A model generated the notes under the pieces. That model was not told the origin of the DNA and ran no database searches. It saw nothing but the letters and a program-made list of their open reading frames with translations. A stretch of 64,000 nt of DNA from Patescibacteria group bacterium UBA4787. GTDB taxonomy: Bacteria; Patescibacteriota; Patescibacteriia; UBA2591; UBA4787. The position numbers and the translations under genes were made by a program. Every line of letters begins with the position of its first letter. Positions within the stretch are counted from its first letter, which is position 1. The stretch covers positions 155,670 through 219,669 of the forward strand of contig DHGX01000004.1 in assembly GCA_002402995.1 (NCBI GenBank). The letters run 5' to 3'. This document shows, piece by piece, positions 6,672-59,198 of this stretch.

Positions 6672-8408
6672 TCATTTTCTATTGGGCGGTATCTGATAAT
6701 AGTTTAATGCAAATTTAGCGAATTTGCCAAATATCGGAGCAGCTGTAGATTCGGCGAAGTTTCCTATTTTTGGATTTATTATCTTAACTACTCCTACAAA
6801 AACCGGATTTTCTGCGGGCGCAAAACCCACAAAAGAATGAATCGTTTCTTCGGAATAACCGCCAGACTTATTAGGAACTTGAGCGGTGCCAGTTTTCCCG
6901 GCAACATAATAACCGGGCACTCTAGCTAATATGCCATAACCGTTCTCCAAGACAGACACCATCATCGCCCCCAAAGTCTTAGCAGTCTCCGGCGTAATGA
7001 CTTGCCTAATAAAATAGGGTTGAGTCATCTCTTCTTTCCCTTCGGGACTAATAATTTTCGCTAATAAATACGGTTTATATAATTTACCTTTGTTGGCGAT
7101 AGCGGAAATAGCCGTAGCTAATTGAATAGGGGTGACCGATATGCCCTGACCGAATGAAGCAGTGGCTAAATAAATATCGCTATTCTTTTCTAAATTGCTA
7201 ATATCGCCCGTAGTCTCGTTAGGTTGTTCTATCTCGGTTAAAGAACCAAAACTAAAATCTTTAACATAAGAACGAAAAAGACTATACCCTAATAACCTGG
7301 CCGCGAAAACCGCCCCTGTGTTTAAAGATTTTTCCAGGACATTAGTCATTGTTTTGGTGCCGTACGCTTTTTTGTCAGAATTCCTAATAGTATAATTGCC
7401 AATTTTAACTTCGCCTGTGTCTTCATAGGTGGTATCGGGTTCAAGTTTATTAGCATCTAAAGCGGCAGCCATGGTAATAACTTTAAAAATTGATCCTGGT
7501 TCAAATGCGTCTGAAGCGGCAACATCTAAAAAATCATGATAATTTTTAGTTTTATTGTATTGATTTGAATCAAAATTAGGATAATTACATAAAGCCAATA
7601 CAGCGCCATTTTTAGGATTCATAATAATCGCCGTTCCCCCTTCGGCTCGAGAATCTTTTATGCCCTCTAATAAATCTTTGCAAACCACATATTGCAACGA
7701 CCTATCAATTGTAAGAATTAAATTACTGCCATCTTTGGCTTGTTTTATGGTTTTGGCTGAATCTAAAATAGAAACCTTGCCGGGCGCATATTCACTTCTT
7801 AATAATCCATTTTCTCCCGCGAGTTGTTTATCAAAAAATTCTTCTACGCCATATAAGCCCTGTCGTTTATCGTCTTTTGTGCCTACAAAACCGATTAAAT
7901 GGCTAAATATTTCTCCTTCGGAATAATATCTTTTGAAACCTTCTTCTGTCGTAATGCCAGGCAAATTTAATTCTTTGATTTGTTTGGCTAAATCGTAACC
8001 TATATCTCTCTTTAATAATTCATAATAATCTATGCGTTTTGATAATCTTGATTTCAGTTCATTAAATTCTTTAGAATTTTCATCTTGAATTCCTAAAAAT
8101 CCAGCAACGATCTTGGTTGTTGAAGCGACGTCTTTTATTTCGGCGGGAATGGCGATGAGATTATAATTATTTATATTTACCGCCAGGGGGAAATTATTAT
8201 AATCTTCGATTGTTCCACGTTTCGCTTCTAAGATACGATCTTCTCCTTGTCGATAAAGAGCTAAAGTATTGTAATATGGATGTTTGATTATCTGTAAATA
8301 AAATAGTCGGGTAATGATTATAAAACCTAAAATAAAAATAACCGCCGATAAGAAAAAGATTCTTTTATTGCTTTCTGTAAAGAAATATTCGCGGTTATTC
8401 ATATTCAA
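6672..8408 (-). CDS. ftsI: Penicillin-binding protein transpeptidase (FtsI/PBP2-like)
   Basis: N-terminal TM anchor, GSIFK (SxxK), SLN, KTGTA motifs; dcw context. Confidence 0.8.
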   Translation of the reverse strand: MNMNNREYFFTESNKRIFFLSAVIFILGFIIITRLFYLQIIKHPYYNTLALYRQGEDRILEAKRGTIEDYNNFPLAVNINNYNLIAIPAEIKDVASTTKIVAGFLGIQDENSKEFNELKSRLSKRIDYYELLKRDIGYDLAKQIKELNLPGITTEEGFKRYYSEGEIFSHLIGFVGTKDDKRQGLYGVEEFFDKQLAGENGLLRSEYAPGKVSILDSAKTIKQAKDGSNLILTIDRSLQYVVCKDLLEGIKDSRAEGGTAIIMNPKNGAVLALCNYPNFDSNQYNKTKNYHDFLDVAASDAFEPGSIFKVITMAAALDANKLEPDTTYEDTGEVKIGNYTIRNSDKKAYGTKTMTNVLEKSLNTGAVFAARLLGYSLFRSYVKDFSFGSLTEIEQPNETTGDISNLEKNSDIYLATASFGQGISVTPIQLATAISAIANKGKLYKPYLLAKIISPEGKEEMTQPYFIRQVITPETAKTLGAMMVSVLENGYGILARVPGYYVAGKTGTAQVPNKSGGYSEETIHSFVGFAPAENPVFVGVVKIINPKIGNFAESTAAPIFGKFAKFALNYYQIPPNRK

Positions 8409-8491
8409 AACTATTTCGAAACTTAATCCGCCAACCGGCGAAACCGTCCGGTGAATTAAAGTCTATATCACAGATCTATATAAATCTTTAT

Positions 8492-8578
8492 TTATTATCA
8501 AGCGAACGAGTGAAATGAAAAACGAAGTTTTTTATTTCCGACCTGTCTCGCCGACGCGAGTCAAGGCGGGGCGAGCGA
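8492..8578 (+). repeat. Repeat family A copy 1, between ftsL and ftsI
   Basis: TTATTATCAAGCGAGCGAGCGAAATGAAAAACGAAGTTTTTTATTTCCGACCTGTCTCGCCGACGCGAGTCAAGGCGGGGCGAGCG. Confidence 0.7.
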
Positions 8579-8591
8579 AGATAACACAGAG

Positions 8592-8942
8592 TTAATACTC
8601 TTTATTTTGCGCAACAGCAGCAATGCCGTCTTTTACATAATCAAGCGCCTTCGCCTCAACTAAATTTAATTTTTGGGCGTCCACGGCTATGTTTTCAATA
8701 GATTTAGTCCGCGACAATTCAATAATAATATTCTGATTATCTGCTATTAATTCTTTGGTTCTTCCATCCAAACTGCGCATAACGTATCCAGCCGAAGCTA
8801 TGCGATTAGCCTGAAAAAGATAAAACCCGAGAAAAATTACAAAACAACCGATAAACAATAAATTAATCTTTTTATAAAACGAATTAGTTAGGCCTAGAAA
8901 ATTGGATTTTAACCCCCCATTGCCCTGATAATATTTTGTCAT
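8592..8942 (-). CDS. Small bitopic cell-division protein (FtsL-like)
   Basis: Single TM, 116 aa, located between rsmH and ftsI. Confidence 0.45.
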   Translation of the reverse strand: MTKYYQGNGGLKSNFLGLTNSFYKKINLLFIGCFVIFLGFYLFQANRIASAGYVMRSLDGRTKELIADNQNIIIELSRTKSIENIAVDAQKLNLVEAKALDYVKDGIAAVAQNKEY

Positions 8943-33938: not shown

Positions 33939-33993
33939 ATATAATGCTTAATATCAAATATTGAACCTAAAAAAACAAAAGGAGGAAGGGACT

Positions 33994-34422
33994 ATGTGTG
34001 GACGTTGTGGCGGACGCAAGAGAACCTCGAGTTGTGGCGGTTGTGATGGGTGCGGTGCTTCATCCAAGAAGTTCGGATGCGAGATATTCAACCACGACAC
34101 CGGCGCGTCGATCGCGACCGGCAAGATCAAGACGATCAACGAACAAACGGGTTTTCTGGTGATAGTTATCGCCAAGGCCGACTTGAAAGCCGTTATGAAA
34201 GAGCTCAAAAAGGCTTTCAATAAAGCCAAGGACGCGGACAACGAGTTCACATACGGCGCGGCGAAAGAAACGCACCGACCCAGATGCGGCGGATGTTCGC
34301 GAATCTCGCGTCTGGAGAAAATGATCTGGGTGAAGCTGATCAAAGAGCAACCCGTGGAGTTCGAGAAAATTCTCCCCATCGCGATCCGAGCCGTGATCAA
34401 CGACGACGAAAAATCCTTCTAA
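33994..34422 (+). CDS. Cys-rich small protein (142 aa; N-terminal CxxC/CGGC cluster and a second RCGGC), GC-rich
   Basis: Strong SD AAAGGAGGAAGGG; ~55% GC versus ~33% background; own promoter and terminator. The antisense ORFs in the track are low-stop artefacts of the GC-rich DNA. Confidence 0.6.
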   Translation: MCGRCGGRKRTSSCGGCDGCGASSKKFGCEIFNHDTGASIATGKIKTINEQTGFLVIVIAKADLKAVMKELKKAFNKAKDADNEFTYGAAKETHRPRCGGCSRISRLEKMIWVKLIKEQPVEFEKILPIAIRAVINDDEKSF

Positions 34423-35978: not shown

Positions 35979-36158
35979 AAAATTTCTTTTTTCGAAAAAT
36001 CTTTAATATTAATTAAATCATTTTCTTAAAAATAAGTAAACAAATTAAATATAACTGATGAGTGAGGAGAAAAATAAAAGCTTGCTTTTGGATTTTCTCC
36101 GAACAAACCAATTTCACACGCGAAGCAAATATAATTAATTGATTGTCAAATTAAAAAA

Positions 36159-36190
36159 GAGGGCTGTTTGTTTTTAAACAGCCCTCTTAT
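36159..36190. terminator. Bidirectional terminator bounding the GC-rich island
   Basis: AGAGGGCTGTTT / AAACAGCCCTCT stem flanked by A- and T-runs. Confidence 0.6.
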
Positions 36191-36191
36191 A

Positions 36192-38099
36192 TTAGAAAAT
36201 GCCTAGAAACTTATGTCTTTTCTTCTGTTTAACTGGGGAAAGTATGTCCGTTGCTGCTGGCTTCGCCGTTATGATTTTCAACCTCAGCAATGATACTTGA
36301 GCGTCAACAGGCAGGTTGTAGCTCAGAATTCCAGCCGGCAGAATGATCCGCTTAACAATCACCAGCGGATAGCGCTTAACAACATTCTTCTGGGGTACAG
36401 ATACCCAGGTGTTATCAACGATCTTCTCCGTCATCGGGGTTGTTGCGCCAGAATCTGAGTCCGGTGGCGGCAAACGGTACTCAACGTGCAGAAAGAGTTT
36501 TGTGTTAGACTGCGTATTTAAGTAACCGATTATTTTATCCGCTACCTTCAACTCGTCGTCGGTCAGAGCCGGCAGTTTAACGCCGTTACAAATAGTGATT
36601 TCTGCTTCGTCCACTGCGTCTTTGGGCACGACAAAGGGTATGACCAAACGATAACCGTATTCGGTGGTATCGTTGTCGGTGCTACCGGCCAAATAAACAC
36701 GGACAGTATCACCCGGCAAGGCCTCATCGCGATCGAGTTCCGCGCGCTTAATCACGAAATTGTCCTGTTTCGGCTGGAATAAAACGCTAATACGAACGGA
36801 TTTGATCTTGTGAATAGTGATTGCCTCTGCCGACAAAGAAGCTAGGCAATCAGCCAATGGACCCAAAACATAACCGCGCACGATTTTTGAAAAAGGATCT
36901 CCTTCAAAATTCATACTGTTGATGATGAAAATCGGATCCATGCCGTCGACGAAAATTTCCGTAATAATTTTGACATTACCATTGAAAACTTCGTTGCCCG
37001 GCCCCACTTCGTAGTAACCGTCGCTGATGGCATAAGCAGAAATGTACTGAACCAGATCAGCAGTCATACCGTTGATGTAAGCTACCCGACAATTGATGGT
37101 TCTGTGTTTTGCTTCGCCTGACAGATTGATGGTAATCGGTAACATTGGCGCTGCACGACCCATCTCTCCGGCAATACAAGAGTAGCAATCAGCAGTAATG
37201 ATACCGCGTTCCGTGCCAACATCACCACCCGTATACTTGTAGGTCGTGTAATAGTTGGCCAACGTTGTCAATATCCGAGCCGGCGCAACGTCAATAGCAG
37301 AAGGTCCTGTTTTCAAGAAAGGATGGCCGAAAGCCAAAAAAAATCCTCGCCGATCTATAGCGGTGATAGTGCCGGTGGCCATCATTCTGATATCACCGTC
37401 AATCAGATAGGCGTTGATCGCGCTACCGGGCTCCAATGTAACAGTCAGACCCTCGTCGCCATAGAAATACCCCTTCCCCGTTCCGCTAGTTGAAGGCACC
37501 ATCACAAAACCATTGACCTGAAACTTTTCAAAGAAAAAAGTATTCAAGTTTTCTGGTATATTGCGATTAGATGGCACTGACAGAACTAGGGGTGTAAGGT
37601 TTAAAGAGTATTTAGCCTTGGCACTGGGAACAGTTTTCCCCAAAAGACGGCTATTTAGGACAGCATTACTGGCATTAATCATCTCCTCAATCGGTGTAAC
37701 GCCGAAAATAGGATCCTTATCAAAAGCCCCGCCGTAAGACAACGCGCCGATCAAGCGGCCGTTGATGTACATTGGACTTCCGCTCATGCCAGCTGCCACA
37801 CCGGTATGCGAAATGGGATAATCTTTAGGACCGCCGAAAGCGCGACAGACAATTATCGGCATATCGCTCGCGCCTGCCCAAACGGTTGAGAATCCGAGCA
37901 CTTCGAATCCGAACTCCTCCGGCTTTATGCCATGGAACACCGTTTTGCCGTAACCCCTCATACCGGGCCGAATCTCGGAAAGTGGCATAATATTGCCGTA
38001 AGACGAGTTGTCAGATTTAATCGGTTTCGCGGCTTCGCTGTTTACAAATAAACAGAAAACCGCCATCAGCACGCACAACGCTGTCAAAATTCGTTTCAT
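36192..38099 (-). CDS. Secreted 635-aa protein with N-terminal SpoIVB/S55-like (PA-clan) serine peptidase motif
   Basis: Signal peptide; HTGVAAGMSGSPMYINGRLIGAL closely resembles the SpoIVB catalytic-Ser region; strong SD AAAGGAGG; ~52% GC. Confidence 0.55.
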   Translation of the reverse strand: MKRILTALCVLMAVFCLFVNSEAAKPIKSDNSSYGNIMPLSEIRPGMRGYGKTVFHGIKPEEFGFEVLGFSTVWAGASDMPIIVCRAFGGPKDYPISHTGVAAGMSGSPMYINGRLIGALSYGGAFDKDPIFGVTPIEEMINASNAVLNSRLLGKTVPSAKAKYSLNLTPLVLSVPSNRNIPENLNTFFFEKFQVNGFVMVPSTSGTGKGYFYGDEGLTVTLEPGSAINAYLIDGDIRMMATGTITAIDRRGFFLAFGHPFLKTGPSAIDVAPARILTTLANYYTTYKYTGGDVGTERGIITADCYSCIAGEMGRAAPMLPITINLSGEAKHRTINCRVAYINGMTADLVQYISAYAISDGYYEVGPGNEVFNGNVKIITEIFVDGMDPIFIINSMNFEGDPFSKIVRGYVLGPLADCLASLSAEAITIHKIKSVRISVLFQPKQDNFVIKRAELDRDEALPGDTVRVYLAGSTDNDTTEYGYRLVIPFVVPKDAVDEAEITICNGVKLPALTDDELKVADKIIGYLNTQSNTKLFLHVEYRLPPPDSDSGATTPMTEKIVDNTWVSVPQKNVVKRYPLVIVKRIILPAGILSYNLPVDAQVSLLRLKIITAKPAATDILSPVKQKKRHKFLGIF

Positions 38100-38227
38100 T
38101 GGAAGGACCTCCTTTCAGTTTGTAGCTCTGTTTTTTGGTTAATGATTTAATTTTCTAAGAACTAAGTTATTATTATTTTGACAAAAACAACAATCTTAGC
38201 AAGTGCACAAATATTTCGATAAAATAA

Positions 38228-38262
38228 AAAACTCCTCTTATTTTTAAGAGGAGTTTTTAACA
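38228..38262 (-). terminator. Rho-independent terminator after the ClpP-like gene
   Basis: AACTCCTCTTA-tttt-TAAGAGGAGTT with flanking T/A runs. Confidence 0.65.
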
Positions 38263-38266
38263 ATTT

Positions 38267-38908
38267 TCATTTCTTTCTCCACAAAAGAACATGATCGATT
38301 AATCCGTAATTGACCGCTTCATCGGATGTTAAATAGAAATCGACGAATAAATCCCGACGCAGCTCTTCAACGCTCTTGTCAGTATTGTCGCTCAAAAGAT
38401 TGAACCCGCGATTTTCCAAGCCTACCAAAATATAAAAGGCTTGTCGGAGATCTTCGCTTCGCCAAACATCGCCGCTAGTCCACAAAGCTGGGCGATGAAT
38501 CATAATAATAGCTAACGGCATAGCGAATCTGTAGCCCACACTACCACTAGAGAGTATGAAAGCCGCCCCGGAACAAGCTTCGCCGAGAACTACGGTTTTC
38601 ACCGGCTTCTGACATCGCTTTATACGATCGCAAATAGCAAAACTCCCGATAGCCGATCCGCCGGGCGAATTGATTAAAATATCGATTCGCTTCACGGTCA
38701 TATCCCGATCCAACACTTCGAGTTTAGACAAAATCTGCTCGGCGCTTGCATTCGTAATCTCGCCAAAGATCAAAATGGTGTTCGAAATAAACGGTAATTC
38801 ATTTTTTATCTTATAGCGATCGATGCTATGAGTTACGAAAACCGCTAAAGCGACAACCAGTAAAACCACGACCAGCACGGAAAACTTGTGACCAGTCGAC
38901 CGATCCAT
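38267..38908 (-). CDS. Membrane-anchored ClpP-fold serine protease (ClpP/NfeD/SppA class)
   Basis: N-terminal TM; INSPGGS, GEACSGAAF (catalytic Ser), MIHRP (His), NYGLID motifs; ~52% GC. Confidence 0.65.
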   Translation of the reverse strand: MDRSTGHKFSVLVVVLLVVALAVFVTHSIDRYKIKNELPFISNTILIFGEITNASAEQILSKLEVLDRDMTVKRIDILINSPGGSAIGSFAICDRIKRCQKPVKTVVLGEACSGAAFILSSGSVGYRFAMPLAIIMIHRPALWTSGDVWRSEDLRQAFYILVGLENRGFNLLSDNTDKSVEELRRDLFVDFYLTSDEAVNYGLIDHVLLWRKK

Positions 38909-39050
38909 GACAAATCCCTCCTTTCTTTTTAAAGAACTGAATTATCTAATTGATTTATTACCTTTTATTCTAATAAACCCGTAAAATTTAACAAGTGAAG
39001 AACTTCTGATTGTTAGATGGCTATTGTTATTTAGGTTAATTAGGTTAAAA

Positions 39051-39164
39051 TATTTATAATTGGTGAGCGGAGGAACAGATAAAAAGAATTTTTATCTGAT
39101 TCCGGACTTGCCCCGTCCGGTGGCGGGGGTGAGCCAATCTCACAAGCGAAGCGAGTATAATAAG
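39051..39164 (+). repeat. Repeat family B copy 1 (TATAAT - three-hairpin core - TATAAT), immediately upstream of folD
   Basis: About 85% identical to 58722-58820; predicted hairpins at 39072-39103, 39111-39128 and 39129-39143. Confidence 0.6.
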
Positions 39165-39184
39165 CCCATATTCAATAGAAACAT

Positions 39185-39994
39185 ATGATCATCGACGGAA
39201 AAAAAATAGCCCAAAAAATAAAAAATCAAATTAGGCGACAACTGAAAAACAAAAGAGCGCGACCTGGTTTGGCTGTGATTTTAATTGGCGATAATCACGC
39301 TTCTTTGAGCTATATTAAACAAAAAAAAATAGCCGCTAAATATTGTTTTATTAATTTTAAACTATTCCATTTTAATAATACTGCTCCCGAAAGATTAATC
39401 CTTAAAACAATCGCTAATCTCAACAAAAATAAAAAAATAAACGGCATTATTGTCCAATTGCCTTTGCCCAAAAGATTTAATACTCAAAAAATTATTGACG
39501 CCATTGATCCCGAAAAAGACGTTGACGGTTTTCGGTTGAAAAGCCAATTTTCTTCTCCAACCCATCAAGCTATTATTAAAGCCGTAAAATCAACCTGCGA
39601 AAATTTAAACAATAAAATAATCGCCCTTGTAGGCAAAAAATCGATTTTCACGATAGGATTAGAGAAAAGATTAATAAAATTGTTTCCAAAAAGTAAAATT
39701 AAGTCTTATTTTTTCAAATATGATCCGTTGGTAAAAATTAAAAAAGGAACAAAAATAGCCGATGCTGTTATTGTCGCCTTAGGTAAAGCCGAATGGCTTA
39801 AATCTAATATGATCAAAAAGGGTGTAATTATTATTGACGTAGGTTTTAATAAAAAAAACACCACTATAATCGGTGATGTTTCCAAAAATATTTATCCGAA
39901 AACCAAATATTATACACCCGTGCCTGGCGGTATCGGTCCCATGACTGTCGCCTATCTTATAAACAACGTATTGAAATCTTTTAAACGCAGCTAA
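39185..39994 (+). CDS. folD: Bifunctional methylene-THF dehydrogenase/cyclohydrolase
   Basis: MIIDGKKIAQKIK N-terminus; FolD layout. Confidence 0.75.
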   Translation: MIIDGKKIAQKIKNQIRRQLKNKRARPGLAVILIGDNHASLSYIKQKKIAAKYCFINFKLFHFNNTAPERLILKTIANLNKNKKINGIIVQLPLPKRFNTQKIIDAIDPEKDVDGFRLKSQFSSPTHQAIIKAVKSTCENLNNKIIALVGKKSIFTIGLEKRLIKLFPKSKIKSYFFKYDPLVKIKKGTKIADAVIVALGKAEWLKSNMIKKGVIIIDVGFNKKNTTIIGDVSKNIYPKTKYYTPVPGGIGPMTVAYLINNVLKSFKRS

Positions 39995-40962
39995 GTCTCG
40001 AAGAATCTTTCAATTTCTTCCATATTCTGGTTTGCTATTTGGTAGCCCAAATTAATAGCGTCCTCGATAGCTTGATGGGAAAAATCAAGAACCTTGTTTG
40101 TTTCCCGCGTAGGCTCAATAATTAAAATTTGTGTGTTTTTAAACGGATAATAGACTTGTTCCCATATCTTTTTTAATTCCGCGTGTCTTGGCATTAAATT
40201 ATTAACCTGCTCTTCAATCTTCTTAATCAGAAAATATTTTTCTAAATCTTTATTGGTTGTATTATAATTAAGCAGTTCAATGACACGATTTACAAGATCG
40301 TCGGTCGATTTTATGATTCTCGTATTTTCGTGTTCGGGGCGATTAACCCAACCCTCTAGCCTTAACGGTTCGTTAACAATAACCAAAATCTTTTTATAAC
40401 CATTCTTCATAACTGGATAAAGAGGTAAATTATATCGCAAACTACCGTCTCCTAGTTTGCCTAAGTGCGTTTCTGGTAAAGAAAAAACACCTGGAATCGC
40501 CGACGTCGCCAAAAGACACTCAATTAAGTCGTCACGATTTTTGAAATTATCAAAAATAATTGTTTCATTATTTTCTAATCTAATTGCAGTGATAAAAAGC
40601 TGGCCATTAATTTGCTGTAAGGTTTTAAAAACTTCGTCATTAACCTCTCGCTGAAATAATTTTTTTAACTGATCTGTGGAATAAAGCGAACCATCTTTAA
40701 TCGGCGAAATGCCGTTGAACAATAGAATGTCGCTGCGCTTCAAGTTAAGCCAAATACTCAAAAGACGATTAATATTCTTGGTGACAGCCATAACACTGTT
40801 AATTCCTCCGACCGAAGTGCCGGAAGCAGCCACAAACCATTTATCTTGAGGATAAAATACGTCGTAAATTGCTTTCAAAACTCCTACGCCAAAAGCCCCC
40901 TTCGCTCCTCCGCCCTCCCAAGCCAAAGCTACGCCGTTTTTGTTATACTGACAATCGTTCAT
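39991..40962 (-). CDS. Patatin-like phospholipase
   Basis: GGGAKGAFGVG and GTSVGG motifs. Start moved to MNDCQ (40962) to remove the overlap with trmH. Confidence 0.7.
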   Translation of the reverse strand: MNDCQYNKNGVALAWEGGGAKGAFGVGVLKAIYDVFYPQDKWFVAASGTSVGGINSVMAVTKNINRLLSIWLNLKRSDILLFNGISPIKDGSLYSTDQLKKLFQREVNDEVFKTLQQINGQLFITAIRLENNETIIFDNFKNRDDLIECLLATSAIPGVFSLPETHLGKLGDGSLRYNLPLYPVMKNGYKKILVIVNEPLRLEGWVNRPEHENTRIIKSTDDLVNRVIELLNYNTTNKDLEKYFLIKKIEEQVNNLMPRHAELKKIWEQVYYPFKNTQILIIEPTRETNKVLDFSHQAIEDAINLGYQIANQNMEEIERFFET

Positions 40963-40984
40963 ATTAACTATTATTATGTCACAT

Positions 40985-41461
40985 TTAACGCATCCTGCTA
41001 AGATGATAGATGGCGATGCCGCTAGCCACCGATACATTGAGCGATTCCTTTTCGCCATTCATCGGAATTTCTAAAATCGCGTCTGATTGTTTTAATAAAC
41101 TCTTAGCCACCCCCAATTTTTCATTGCCAACGACCAAAACCAACGGAAATTTTGGCTTATAATTAAAAAGAGTCTTACTTTTTTGATTTTTTTCTAAGCT
41201 GACTATGCTAAATCTTTGTTTTTTAAGAATTTCAATCAAACGCCAAGCCTGATTATGATATTCCCATGGTATATTTTTTTCTGCGCCTAGCGCCACCTTA
41301 GAAATTTTTTCATTATGTTTTTGCGGCGTGCCGGTAATACCACAAAGATAAATTTTATCTACGCCAGCGCCATCAGCTGTCCGAAAAATTGAGCCGACGT
41401 TAAATAAGCTGCGAATATTGTCGCAAACTACATAAAACCTTTTATCAATAAATTCAGGCAT
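40985..41461 (-). CDS. SpoU/TrmH-family RNA 2'-O-methyltransferase
   Basis: SPOUT motifs (VVVGNEKLG; ILEIPMNG...SLNVSVA). Confidence 0.7.
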   Translation of the reverse strand: MPEFIDKRFYVVCDNIRSLFNVGSIFRTADGAGVDKIYLCGITGTPQKHNEKISKVALGAEKNIPWEYHNQAWRLIEILKKQRFSIVSLEKNQKSKTLFNYKPKFPLVLVVGNEKLGVAKSLLKQSDAILEIPMNGEKESLNVSVASGIAIYHLSRMR

Positions 41462-56370: not shown

Positions 56371-56431
56371 ATAAATATTATTTCTTTTTTTCCGTTACCT
56401 CTATATTGTTTAATCTTTGTAGTTTCTTTAT

Positions 56432-56516
56432 ACTTGCTTCGCTTCGTGAAATCGGCTCGCTACGGAATCAGACAAAAATTCTTTTTGCCTGTTCCTCCGC
56501 TCAACAATTATAAAGG
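56432..56516 (-). repeat. Repeat family B, partial inverted copy (lacks the GC hairpin)
   Basis: rc ~85% identical to the 39051-39105 core plus right flank. Confidence 0.5.
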
Positions 56517-56530
56517 GCATTAACCCTGTG

Positions 56531-57769
56531 TTATCCGCGCTCGCTCGGAAGGACAAGCGAGCTTGTCTTTCTCTCGCTCGCTTGATAATAAAATTTAATG
56601 GTTTCCTTTGCCGTATCTTCCCAACTAAATTCTTTAGCTCTTTCTCGACCAGATTTGCTTAAGTCGTGCCATAGATGCGTATCGGTCAAAAGATCTGACA
56701 TGGCTTGGGCAATCTCGGAAACATTAAAGGGGTCAACTAAAATAGCGTGCCCCCTGGCTATTTCCGGCATTGAAGAAATATTACTGGTTATCACCGGCAC
56801 GCCATTAGCCATAGCTTCTAAAATTGGCAGGCCGAAACCCTCGTAAAGACTGGGAAAAATAAAAAATTTGGCGCCCTGAAATAAAGGGTCCAAATCTTCC
56901 GGATCTATATAGCCTGGAAGCAAAATATCGTCTTTATATTTTGAATCATTGATCCTTTCAAAAATTTGATCATATTGGTTGCCCGGCTTGCCGGCTAAAA
57001 CTAATTGGTATTTAGACAATAAATGATTAATGCTTGACTGTTCTTCGGCTTGAGAGGCTTGTGGCAGTTCAATTAATTTATCTCTTAATCTTTCGTAAGA
57101 TTCTACGATACGAAAAACATTTTTCCGGCTATCTATTGTTCCTAAAAACAAAACGTAGTTCGCGCCAATACCTAACCTGGTTTTAACTTTTTCAATTTCT
57201 CCTGAGGGTACTTGCCTAAAAAACCTCTTGTCTACTCCATGATAAATTAATTTTATATTCTCGCTTTTTACTGAAAAAATATCCTGAATGTCTTTTTTCG
57301 TTGATTGAGAAACGGTTATTATTTTTTCGGCCTGTTTAACCGCGGAAGAGGTATTTGAATACAACATTTTCCGCTCTTTTTCGGAATAGAGCTCCGGAAA
57401 CTTATAAACCGCTAGATCGTGAATCGTAATTATTGAAGGATAACTATAAGAGCTTGGCAAATCGGCTGTCGGCGAATGGAAAACGTCAAGTTTTTCTTTG
57501 GCTAAAAGAGCGCTAGCCAAAAAATTAGAATAAGATTGAGGCAAGAATTTCCTATATTGGACGAATGGGAAAAATTTAATTTCTACATTATCTTCCTCGA
57601 ATTTTGATAAACGCCTATTAGCTACCCCTCGATCAAAGAATAAAACATAAAAATTATCTTTATCAACTTCAAGTAAATGCCTTACTAATTGATAAGTATA
57701 ATGCCCCACTCCGGCCGCTTCCCCTTTCTCGGGATTTAAAATTGTACGACAGTCAATTCCTATTTTCAT
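56531..57769 (-). CDS. Glycosyltransferase family 4 (GT-B)
   Basis: EGFGLPILEAMANGVPVITSN. Start placed at MKIGIDCRT (ATG at 57769). Last ~15 codons and the stop are supplied by an A-family-like palindromic repeat (56536-56593). Confidence 0.75.
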   Translation of the reverse strand: MKIGIDCRTILNPEKGEAAGVGHYTYQLVRHLLEVDKDNFYVLFFDRGVANRRLSKFEEDNVEIKFFPFVQYRKFLPQSYSNFLASALLAKEKLDVFHSPTADLPSSYSYPSIITIHDLAVYKFPELYSEKERKMLYSNTSSAVKQAEKIITVSQSTKKDIQDIFSVKSENIKLIYHGVDKRFFRQVPSGEIEKVKTRLGIGANYVLFLGTIDSRKNVFRIVESYERLRDKLIELPQASQAEEQSSINHLLSKYQLVLAGKPGNQYDQIFERINDSKYKDDILLPGYIDPEDLDPLFQGAKFFIFPSLYEGFGLPILEAMANGVPVITSNISSMPEIARGHAILVDPFNVSEIAQAMSDLLTDTHLWHDLSKSGRERAKEFSWEDTAKETIKFYYQASERKTSSLVLPSERG

Positions 57770-57873
57770 AATGTATTTATTATACTCGCTACGCTCGTAA
57801 AATTGGTTCGCCCCGCTTCGCCGGAGCTCTCGCCACGCTAACGCGTTGGCGTAGCGGGTTAGCGAGGCGAGTC

Positions 57874-58081
57874 GGAGCCAAATCAAAAGAAGATTTTTGT
57901 TTGACGTCCTCGCTCATTCATTATAAGCAAAGCTTGAAATTTCTTCGCTCGGAGTCAAATCAAAAGAAGACTTTTGTTTGACGTCCTCGCTCATTCATTA
58001 TAAGCAAAGCTTGAAATTTCTTCGCTCGGAGTCAAATCAAAAGAAGACTTTTGTTTGACGTCCTCGCTCATTCATTATAAC
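57874..58081 (+). repeat. Tandem repeat, 77-bp unit x about 2.7
   Basis: Units start at 57874, 57951 and 58028 and are >95% identical; contains a TTATAAG/TATAAT-like box. Confidence 0.8.
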
Positions 58082-58634: not shown

Positions 58635-58647
58635 ATTATAATTGGCA

Positions 58648-58694
58648 GCGAGGATGTCAAACAAAAGTCTTCTTTTGATTTGACTCCGAGCGAA
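58648..58694 (-). repeat. Inverted partial copy of the 77-bp repeat unit
   Basis: GCGAGGATGTCAAACAAAAGTCTTCTTTTGATTTGACTCCGAGCGAA equals the rc of the unit with one mismatch. Confidence 0.7.
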
Positions 58695-58820
58695 CCAATT
58701 TCACGAAGCGAAACGAGTATAATTGGTGACCGGAGGAACAGACAAATTTTTTGTCTGATTCCGGACTTGCCCCGTCCAACGGCGGGGGTGAACCAATTTC
58801 ACAAACAAAAGAAGTATATT
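58683..58820 (+). repeat. Repeat family B copy 2 (flank-core-flank, ~107-bp period), ending at the tmRNA 5' end
   Basis: GAACCAATTTCAC...GTATAAT flank occurs at 58688 and 58795; core is ~85% identical to 39061-39143. Confidence 0.6.
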
Positions 58821-59198
58821 GGGGATGAATAAAATCGACGAGAAAGAACAGATAAAGATGGCTTTCCGCTCGAAGGTAAGCGCGTTCCTTCAAAAATACA
58901 AATGCCAATTTATTTGGTAGACTAAAGCAAGCTTCTCAGCCTGCTTATAGTCTTGCTGTGGCTTAACAAAGCCGTGGCCGCTAAAAGTTTGACTCCTGTT
59001 AAAACTTGAAGCGCTTAATCAGCAGGATTAGCTTAAACGAATCCGGCCTAATTCGTTTGGCGAAACAAATTTGGCCATGGTTAATATGGATTTTGTTTGG
59101 TTTTTACCATAATAACCGAGATCAAAACCGAACTACGAAGGTAGAGGTCTTTATTTAACTTTCTTCGGACGGGGGTGAAATACCCCCCATCTCCACCA
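58821..59198 (+). ncRNA. ssrA: tmRNA (ssrA)
   Basis: 5' GGGGATGAATAAAATCGACGAG resembles the E. coli tmRNA 5' end; 3' GGACGGGGGTGAAATACCCCCCATCTCCACCA forms a T-arm-like hairpin and a 7-bp acceptor with G3-U70; internal tag reading frame ...ASQPAYSLAVA-stop (58904-58966); adjacent to smpB. Confidence 0.75.

Follow-up and report, generated by a model that had tools for sequence, protein, structure and literature searches.

The window analysed here is a stretch of 64,000 nucleotides of contig DHGX01000004.1 (positions 155,670 to 219,669, forward strand) from Patescibacteria group bacterium UBA4787. It carries, side by side on the minus strand, a gene for a ClpP-family serine protease of 213 amino acids (aa) with an N-terminal hydrophobic helix (TM-ClpP; TM, transmembrane) and a gene for an exported 635-aa protein (the S55-like protein) related to SpoIVB, the signalling protease of Bacillus subtilis sporulation (MEROPS S55). 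The data for the host genome are those of the 64-kb window; relatives and other loci are labelled L001–L093, and both the clade of the window and L002 carry the label Patescibacteria. An earlier reading, made from the sequence alone (the sequence-only reading), had placed two protease open reading frames (ORFs) here, and both are present, with every motif that it quoted found in the translations. The features of the pair are listed in the direction of transcription.

38915..38923, minus strand: Shine-Dalgarno sequence AAGGAGGGA of the ClpP-like gene (direct reading of the sequence)
38267..38908, minus strand: TM-ClpP gene, for a 213-aa, predicted membrane-anchored ClpP-family serine protease (ORF list; Pfam CLP_protease; solved ClpP relatives)
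38828..38884, minus strand: N-terminal hydrophobic helix, approximately residues 9–27, interpreted as a signal anchor, possibly as a cleavable signal peptide (Kyte-Doolittle)
38282..38782, minus strand: ClpP catalytic core, residues 43–209, with triad Ser113, His138 and Asp190 (alignment to Staphylococcus aureus ClpP)
38227..38258, minus strand: intrinsic-terminator-like hairpin, 14 bp stem and T-run, 9 nt past the stop codon of the ClpP-like gene (terminator scan)
38107..38116, minus strand: Shine-Dalgarno sequence GAAAGGAGGT of the S55-like gene (direct reading of the sequence)
36192..38099, minus strand: S55-like gene, for a 635-aa exported, PDZ-less, SpoIVB-like putative serine protease (ORF list; full-length homologues; AlphaFold2 model)
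38031..38099, minus strand: Sec-type signal peptide, residues 1–23, MKRILTALCVLMAVFCLFVNSEA, with a probable cleavage site before AKP (translation; AlphaFold2 helix at residues 2–19)
37653..37979, minus strand: first beta-barrel and helix, residues 41–149, with the catalytic-type Ser106 in GMSGSP (SpoIVB profile matches; AlphaFold2 model)
37155..37427, minus strand: second beta-barrel, residues 225–315, with the invariant Asp236, His259 and Asp304
36195..37154, minus strand: C-terminal half, residues 316–635, beta-rich domains and two long helices (AlphaFold2 model)
36157..36188, minus strand: intrinsic-terminator-like hairpin, 13 bp stem (6 G-C pairs) and T-run, directly past the stop codon of the S55-like gene (terminator scan)

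The strong Shine-Dalgarno sequences that had been claimed for both genes are legible in the sequence, and the terminators that had been placed at 36159-36190 and 38228-38262 correspond to the two hairpins. Both hairpins are perfect and long and are the sole outstanding items of the terminator scan of the region, where the total of terminator-like and promoter-like sites shows no excess over the shuffled expectation. The two genes lie 168 nt apart, with a terminator in the gap.

The 213-aa protein is matched by the Pfam family CLP_protease (PF00574; expectation value (E) 3.7e-38; 131.7 bits against a cut-off of 20.2) over positions 16–179 of the 182 in the profile, a search that the sequence-only reading had proposed. 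Its best solved relatives are ClpPs (E 1.3e-26, residues 43–209), with an identity to bacterial ClpPs of approximately 40% over these residues, and the alignment to them begins at residue 43, which corresponds to ClpP residue 28. The motifs INSPGGS (79–85), GEACSGAAF (109–117), MIHRP (136–140) and NYGLID (200–205) are all present. Ser113, His138 and Asp190 (GEAC-S113-GAAF, MI-H138-RP and V-D190-FYLT) align with Ser98, His123 and Asp172 of S. aureus ClpP, and no substitution occurs in these three columns in any of 119 canonical ClpPs or within the TM-ClpP clade. The Pfam match and the alignment to solved ClpPs bear out the fold, the N-terminal hydrophobic helix and the full triad that had been read from the sequence; the catalytic Asp had been placed in NYGLID and lies instead in VDFYLT, where D190 aligns with S. 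aureus Asp172. As judged from its sequence, the protein is a ClpP-fold protease with an intact triad.

That the ClpP-like gene is a domesticated prohead (head-maturation) protease left by a prophage is highly improbable. PHROG head-maturation families do match the protein (phrog_94, E 1.7e-28), as does the NCBIfam model Clp_rel_HeadMat (NF045542, E 4.1e-21), and the codon usage of the gene, described below, is atypical. The matches to cellular ClpPs are stronger, however (Pfam, 3.7e-38; NCBIfam ClpP subfamilies, 5e-34), the NF045542 score of 75.6 bits falls short of the cut-off of 120, and the N-terminal TM helix is unlike a prohead protease. The S55-like protein has no PHROG match, and the neighbours of the pair are housekeeping genes (TatD, HD, FolD, patatin and SpoU), with no capsid, portal or terminase gene nearby.

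The N-terminus of TM-ClpP differs from that of canonical ClpPs. A hydrophobic helix of 19–20 residues (Kyte-Doolittle 19-residue mean of 2.89 at residue 11), conserved in five members of the clade including L090 and L092, takes the place of the axial loop and helix alphaA, where the canonical ClpPs have LIPTVIEKT..GERAYDIYSRLL; an N-terminal hydrophobic segment of this kind is found in none of 117 canonical ClpP matches. Two further positions, 62 and 82 in the Escherichia coli numbering, have also changed: at the first, all 119 canonical ClpPs have Tyr and the 213-aa protein has Leu, and the second is aromatic in 116 of 119 and Arg in the 213-aa protein. From structural work, Tyr62 and aromatic-82 of E. 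coli ClpP belong to the hydrophobic pocket in which the IGF/LGF loops of ClpX and ClpA, and the acyldepsipeptides (ADEP), dock. The NCBIfam ClpP models match the protein at approximately 1e-34 to 5e-34, all of them below their equivalog or subfamily cut-offs (the ClpP equivalog TIGR00493, for example, gives 108.2 bits against 308.6).

ClpP is the textbook example of a cytoplasmic protease gated by an ATPase. Since the axial and docking N-terminus is replaced and the pocket residues are lost, TM-ClpP should work without a Clp ATPase, and we infer that it is a catalytically competent ClpP paralogue that lacks unfoldase docking and is attached to the membrane or exported. In the sequences of the TM-ClpP clade the charge flanking the helix is +1 to +2 on the N-terminal side and +1 on the other, which weakly favours an N-in/C-out arrangement with the protease domain outside the cytoplasm. 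The residues T-H-S ahead of Ile29 could be a signal-peptidase site. The predicted membrane-anchored variant occurs in no clade other than that of the window.

End-to-end alignments place the 635-aa protein, over its full length, in a huge family of exported proteins that spans many phyla. A full scan with a hidden Markov model (HMM) at E<=1e-30 recovered 4,834 representative clusters, and at least 887 proteins of 550–650 aa align end to end, with 26–33% identity over 70–86% of the length. Members occur in the Acidobacteriota, Planctomycetota, KSB1, Armatimonadota, WOR-3, Negativicutes, Patescibacteria and other groups, and an N-terminal hydrophobic stretch of signal type is present in 58 of 70 aligned members. 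The family invariants, namely GMSGSP (from residue 104, with Ser106), G235-D236, G258-H259 and D304, are all found in the window protein. What had been described as ~500 aa with no recognisable domain is part of a conserved full-length architecture common to thousands of proteins. No characterised member of the family was found.

The AlphaFold2 model of the protein (predicted local distance difference test, pLDDT, 77.9; predicted template modelling score, pTM, 0.76) consists of a six-stranded barrel and helix (residues 48–149, with the strands within 48–136 and the helix at 137–149), a less confident insert, a second barrel (227–313) and approximately 300 further residues. The length of the C-terminal half is conserved across the family and its sequence poorly so, with G463, P492, P544 and G601 as the only conserved residues, and no Pfam family matches residues 316–635.

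Profile comparisons show clear homology between residues 41–144 and the serine-bearing barrel at the C-terminus of SpoIVB. The family profile matches residues 223–305 of the SpoIVB structure 9lnf_A with E 1.6e-10; for the same barrel hhalign gives a probability of 97.3%, rising to 99.0% with the SpoIVB family profile, and hmmsearch gives 3.8e-15. The signal peptide and the SpoIVB-like catalytic-serine segment close to the N-terminus, both noted in the sequence-only reading, are upheld. The search with the Pfam S55 model (PF05580) that had been suggested did hit the serine segment, at residues 99–123 only, and with a sub-threshold score of 20.4 bits against a cut-off of 25.

The second barrel presumably corresponds to the N-terminal barrel of the trypsin/S55 fold, which bears the His. 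Each of the fold matches of the 635-aa model aligns approximately 100 residues, equivalent to one barrel, and the second barrel alone matches clan-PA proteases and SpoIVB. Its profile is colinear with the N-terminal barrel of SpoIVB over 77 columns, in a weak alignment (E 0.01, HH probability 4%) that places GT.T..FG-H259 on GTMT..LG-H236 of SpoIVB. His259 and Asp304 are 45 residues apart, the same spacing as between His57 and Asp102 of chymotrypsin. For the His barrel, comparison of one SpoIVB sequence with the family profile yielded no significant match (hhalign probability 0.65%), nor did that of the segment profile with SpoIVB among 999 shuffles (E 0.13). Only approximately 15 mature residues lie ahead of the Ser barrel, and Ser106 precedes the invariant His259. 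Taken with the model, this order suggests that the barrels of the family are swapped, with the Ser barrel first, as a circular permutation of the SpoIVB and trypsin arrangement would produce. In the two-barrel fold of SpoIVB, His236 and Ser378 are the equivalents of chymotrypsin His57 and Ser195, and the third catalytic residue was left open (PMC12502668). In the weak profile alignment the family-invariant Asp304 (QDR motif, 45 residues past the His) falls on an Asn of SpoIVB (I-N-R-N-S), a difference that may be related to that third residue.

The closeness of the catalytic-serine segment to that of SpoIVB raises the question of a like function, in which the S55-like protein would trigger regulated intramembrane proteolysis as it is known from sporulation; a role of the pair in defence or toxin processing had also been considered. 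Both are improbable. The S55-like protein has no PDZ domain (Pfam, E up to 1), its score with the SpoIVB equivalog TIGR02860 is 15 bits, where the cut-off is 305, and its family occurs widely among phyla that do not sporulate. Neither a site-2 protease gene nor one similar to SpoIVFA neighbours the pair, and PADLOC gave no match for either protein at E<=0.01. The phage-remnant and defence readings offered in the sequence-only reading, and the sporulation reading, found no support in the PHROG, PADLOC and NCBIfam searches.

The order folD – ClpP-like – S55-like – tatD is kept in the close relatives L001 and L087–L092, in which the ClpP-like proteins are 81–87% identical and the S55-like proteins 76% identical to those of the window. 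In two of them a 117-aa ORF is called between the two genes (L092 8262-8615(+); L001 1711-2064(+)), where the gap is 383 nt; the window has no such ORF.

The block 36192-38908 is the GC-richest stretch of the window, with 45.6% G+C against 37.0% for the whole window and a peak of 49% in a 1-kb window. The contrast of ~52% against ~33% given in the sequence-only reading overstated its size, but the comparison of GC and codon usage that it had proposed upheld a compositional anomaly, smaller than claimed. The coding GC of the pair is 46.9%, against a background of 36.8%, and 41.9% would be expected from its amino acids with the codon usage of the window. Approximately half of the excess (36.8 to 41.9%) is therefore due to amino-acid composition, the two proteins having less Lys (5.7% vs 10.0%) and more Gly, Ala, Pro, Val and Thr, and the remainder (41.9 to 46.9%) is due to synonymous codon bias. 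The synonymous excess of G+C at the third codon position (GC3) is +0.139 and +0.122 for the two genes, compared with -0.003 +/- 0.03 for 40 other ORFs of the window, which puts the pair 4–4.6 standard deviations (SD) above them. The same GC offset is kept by the pair in the close relatives, and in the genomes of 43–45% GC that carry a pair (L003–L006) its composition is ordinary.

The atypical codon usage suggests that the pair entered the clade laterally, before the known relatives diverged. Since the close relatives share both the site and the GC offset, any acquisition would be old, and the ordinary composition of the pair in genomes of 43–45% GC would fit a donor of approximately that composition. 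It is unlikely, and more so than the rival discussed further below, that no foreign island is involved and that the offset arose in native genes from the amino-acid make-up of exported proteins together with expression-linked codon choice. Such an origin would agree with the half of the GC excess that lies in amino-acid composition, with the slight difference in third-position G+C at four-fold sites (0.51 vs 0.45), with the synteny of the pair in all known relatives, and with the lack of any empty site among the sequences recovered. It accords less well with a synonymous GC3 excess of 4–4.6 SD that includes Lys AAG, Gln CAG and Glu GAG, which to our knowledge are not typical choices of translational selection in AT-rich genomes, or with the ordinary composition of the pair in genomes of 43–45% GC. 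The check for absence of the island in close relatives, which had been recommended, found the pair in the same folD–tatD site in all of them and no empty site. A metagenome scan with the FolD protein recovered one close relative, L093 (93%), in which the contig ends inside folD, and no other match exceeded 42% identity.

A third ORF, 1.7 kb from the protease pair, deviates more in composition than any other in the window. It encodes a Cys-rich protein of 153 aa (33961-34422(+); CGRCGG..SSCGGCDGCG ... RPRCGGCSR), with 51.5% GC, a GC3 of 0.656 and a synonymous GC3 excess of +0.30. It has no Pfam or Rfam match, and a gene (142 aa) is called at the same position in L087.

Beyond the close relatives, the next-nearest S55-like proteins (30–33% identity) are those of L002, L003–L005 and L006. 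In L003–L006, a second and distant lineage, the S55-like gene is immediately preceded, on the same strand, by a ClpP gene, and in L002 the S55-like gene is directly followed by a gene for a 240-aa Trypsin_2 protease (7990-8712(+)). The S55-like gene thus adjoins a second serine protease in three lineages, namely the clade of the window, L003–L006 and L002. A ClpP-fold ORF was found within 6 kb of the S55-like gene at none of 80 loci from other phyla. The co-occurrence that had been proposed for checking is therefore real in the close relatives and, in another form, in L003–L006, but does not extend to the other phyla; the pairing is conserved but confined to a narrow clade. The pair matches no described module in PADLOC or in the literature.

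In the other phyla the family keeps other company. At 39 of the 80 loci (L007–L086) a large Reg_prop beta-propeller ORF (~800 aa; for example L085 10325-12922) begins, on the same strand, within a few nt of where the S55-like gene stops, and is likely to be an operon partner of the family outside Patescibacteria; this partnership was considered for the window pair and is not transferable to it. At 12 of the 80, genes for an exosortase (EpsH) and a DUF3485 protein lie divergently upstream of the S55-like gene (L084 4891-5856(-), L073 4284-5030(-) and 10 similar), which may link the family to PEP-CTERM sorting in some Acidobacteriota.

The identities of the two proteins are firm. The reading that we favour, tentatively and with a probability of roughly 0.4, is that the two genes form a pair for ATP-independent proteolysis whose products both probably act outside the cytoplasm. 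The Sec-exported, S55-related protein would act as an endoprotease that makes the first cuts in surface or environmental proteins, and an ungated ClpP chamber, tethered to the membrane or released from it, would trim the fragments to short peptides. The purpose could be the scavenging of peptides, or the turnover of envelope proteins, in an auxotrophic cell with a reduced genome. A bolder version, which we regard as quite unlikely, would have an extracytoplasmic, exported or signal-anchored, permanently ungated and ATPase-free ClpP chamber working downstream of a circularly permuted SpoIVB-type endoprotease and harvesting peptides from a host or the surroundings, possibly for an epibiotic Patescibacterium. 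Independently of this, the S55-like family would represent a circular permutation of the trypsin fold that arose naturally.

Several observations weigh against the favoured reading. The membrane topology of the ClpP-like protein is ambiguous, as the charge difference across the helix is only 0–1, and a ClpP tetradecamer would be hard to tether by both rings to one membrane through linkers of approximately 10 residues, so that ClpP activity may need cleavage of the signal or an unusual assembly. The His barrel is weakly supported at the level of sequence (E 0.01 and HH 4%; E 0.13), nine of ten segments being without a Pfam match. The amino-acid composition accounts for half of the GC excess, and neither an empty folD–tatD site nor a donor lineage was found in the metagenome scan with FolD. 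A strong terminator separates the two genes, and the S55-like genes of other phyla stand beside other partners. The ClpP of L003–L006 is of the canonical cytoplasmic type, with an axial loop and without a TM helix; the two genes may thus owe their adjacency to history and not to function, and the idea of a dedicated two-protease cascade is weakened accordingly.

According to the main rival, common descent alone keeps the two genes side by side, and they do not work together. The S55-like protein would then be an exported protease with a role of its own, the ClpP-like protein a membrane-tethered protease facing the cytoplasm and serving the quality control of membrane proteins, and their adjacency a leftover of an older clpP–S55 synteny. 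The pairing of the S55-like gene with a canonical ClpP in L003–L006, the terminator between the genes and the Shine-Dalgarno sequence of each, the lack of the pair at all 80 loci of other phyla and the Trypsin_2 gene that stands in its place in L002 are as this rival would predict. Against an ATPase-dependent function in the cytoplasm stand, however, the missing axial loop and the replacement of the invariant Tyr62 and of aromatic-82, and the positive charges before the helix disfavour an N-out/C-in arrangement. Nor is the window protein especially close to the ClpPs of L003 and L006, with 68 bits to these against 124 bits to its best canonical match. On balance we hold the rival to be somewhat unlikely, and retain the ATP-independent, extracytoplasmic pair as the working reading.

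If the favoured reading is right, an anchored ClpP without the pocket Tyr would be a case of a self-compartmentalised protease redeployed without its unfoldase, perhaps outside the cell. Patescibacteria depend on external amino acids, and exported proteases are plausible as factors of nutrition or of interaction with a host. Literature searches for membrane-anchored ClpP in Patescibacteria and for permuted S55 or trypsin folds found nothing, the term 'Peptidase S55' occurring only in an unrelated context. The S55-like gene adds a new member to a large, uncharacterised family of proteins of ~600 aa, annotated in databases as 'Peptidase S55 domain-containing protein', and the ClpP-like gene encodes a form of ClpP that is new and confined to one clade.

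The sequence-only reading had also placed the block next to a 'family-B' repeat. The repeat exists, and two direct copies of it, 74% identical, bracket the gene pair, but it is dispersed and not part of the island. It is approximately 90–140 nt long, matches no Rfam family and has at least six copies in the window, as follows.

36032..36149, plus strand: left repeat copy, with no plus-strand gene downstream (nhmmer E 4.1e-26; no Rfam match)
39045..39185, plus strand: right repeat copy, ending ...GCGAAGCGAGTATAAT just upstream of folD (nhmmer E 1.3e-41; no Rfam match)
58635-58723 and 58717-58820, plus strand: further repeat copies, in tandem and abutting the transfer-messenger RNA (tmRNA) gene at 58821 (nhmmer)
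56425-56514 and 57765-57927, minus strand: further repeat copies (nhmmer)

The end of the repeat has the consensus ...CCAATyTCACAnGCGAAGCnAnTATAAT, which resembles a -10 box, and the element may be a mobile, promoter-carrying sequence or one similar to a miniature inverted-repeat transposable element (MITE). In L092 and L001 the gene pair is not accompanied by it, and its copies are species-specific. The flanking copies were considered as attachment (att) sites, and this was rejected on account of the dispersed copies in the window and of their absence around the pair in L092 and L001. The repeat is incidental to the gene pair and lies outside the island.

The longest ORF of the patatin-like gene (39991-41058(-), 355 aa) overlaps the upstream SpoU-methylase ORF (40985-41461(-)) by 74 nt. 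The product is 323 aa in public gene calls, and the true start is therefore probably downstream of the listed one.

Among known systems, the closest to the S55-like protein is SpoIVB (MEROPS S55, PDB 9lnf), with which it shares a homologous catalytic-serine barrel. In SpoIVB His236 comes before Ser378, whereas in the S55-like protein the Ser barrel comes before the His barrel. The S55-like protein further differs in having no PDZ domain, in its approximately 300 extra C-terminal residues, in scoring below the Pfam S55 and TIGR02860 cut-offs, in the occurrence of its family in non-sporulating phyla and in the invariant Asp304 where SpoIVB aligns Asn. Compared with extracytoplasmic clan-PA proteases of the HtrA/DegP and Rv3671c types, it has no significant sequence similarity, no PDZ domain, an apparently swapped barrel order and a large extra C-terminal region.

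The 213-aa protein has the ClpP fold and the presumed lack of an ATPase partner in common with the phage head-maturation proteases, as its PHROG matches reflect; it is closer to cellular ClpP, stands in no phage context and carries a TM helix. Like SppA and the NfeD/STOPP proteins (MEROPS S49), it has a membrane-tethered domain of ClpP fold that is presumably ATP-independent. SppA and the NfeD-type S49 enzymes use a Ser-Lys dyad, whereas the 213-aa protein keeps the His and Asp of ClpP and scores 33.7 bits with the SppA model TIGR00706 against a cut-off of 155.45. No Pfam match to the NfeD C-terminal domain was found for the protein and no stomatin neighbour at its locus, which speaks against the known NfeD–stomatin module that had been named as a possible outcome. 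With canonical ClpP (MEROPS S14) the 213-aa protein has the fold, the Ser-His-Asp triad and the handle region in common, and it differs in the hydrophobic helix that stands in for the axial loop and alphaA, in Leu for Tyr62 and in Arg for aromatic-82.

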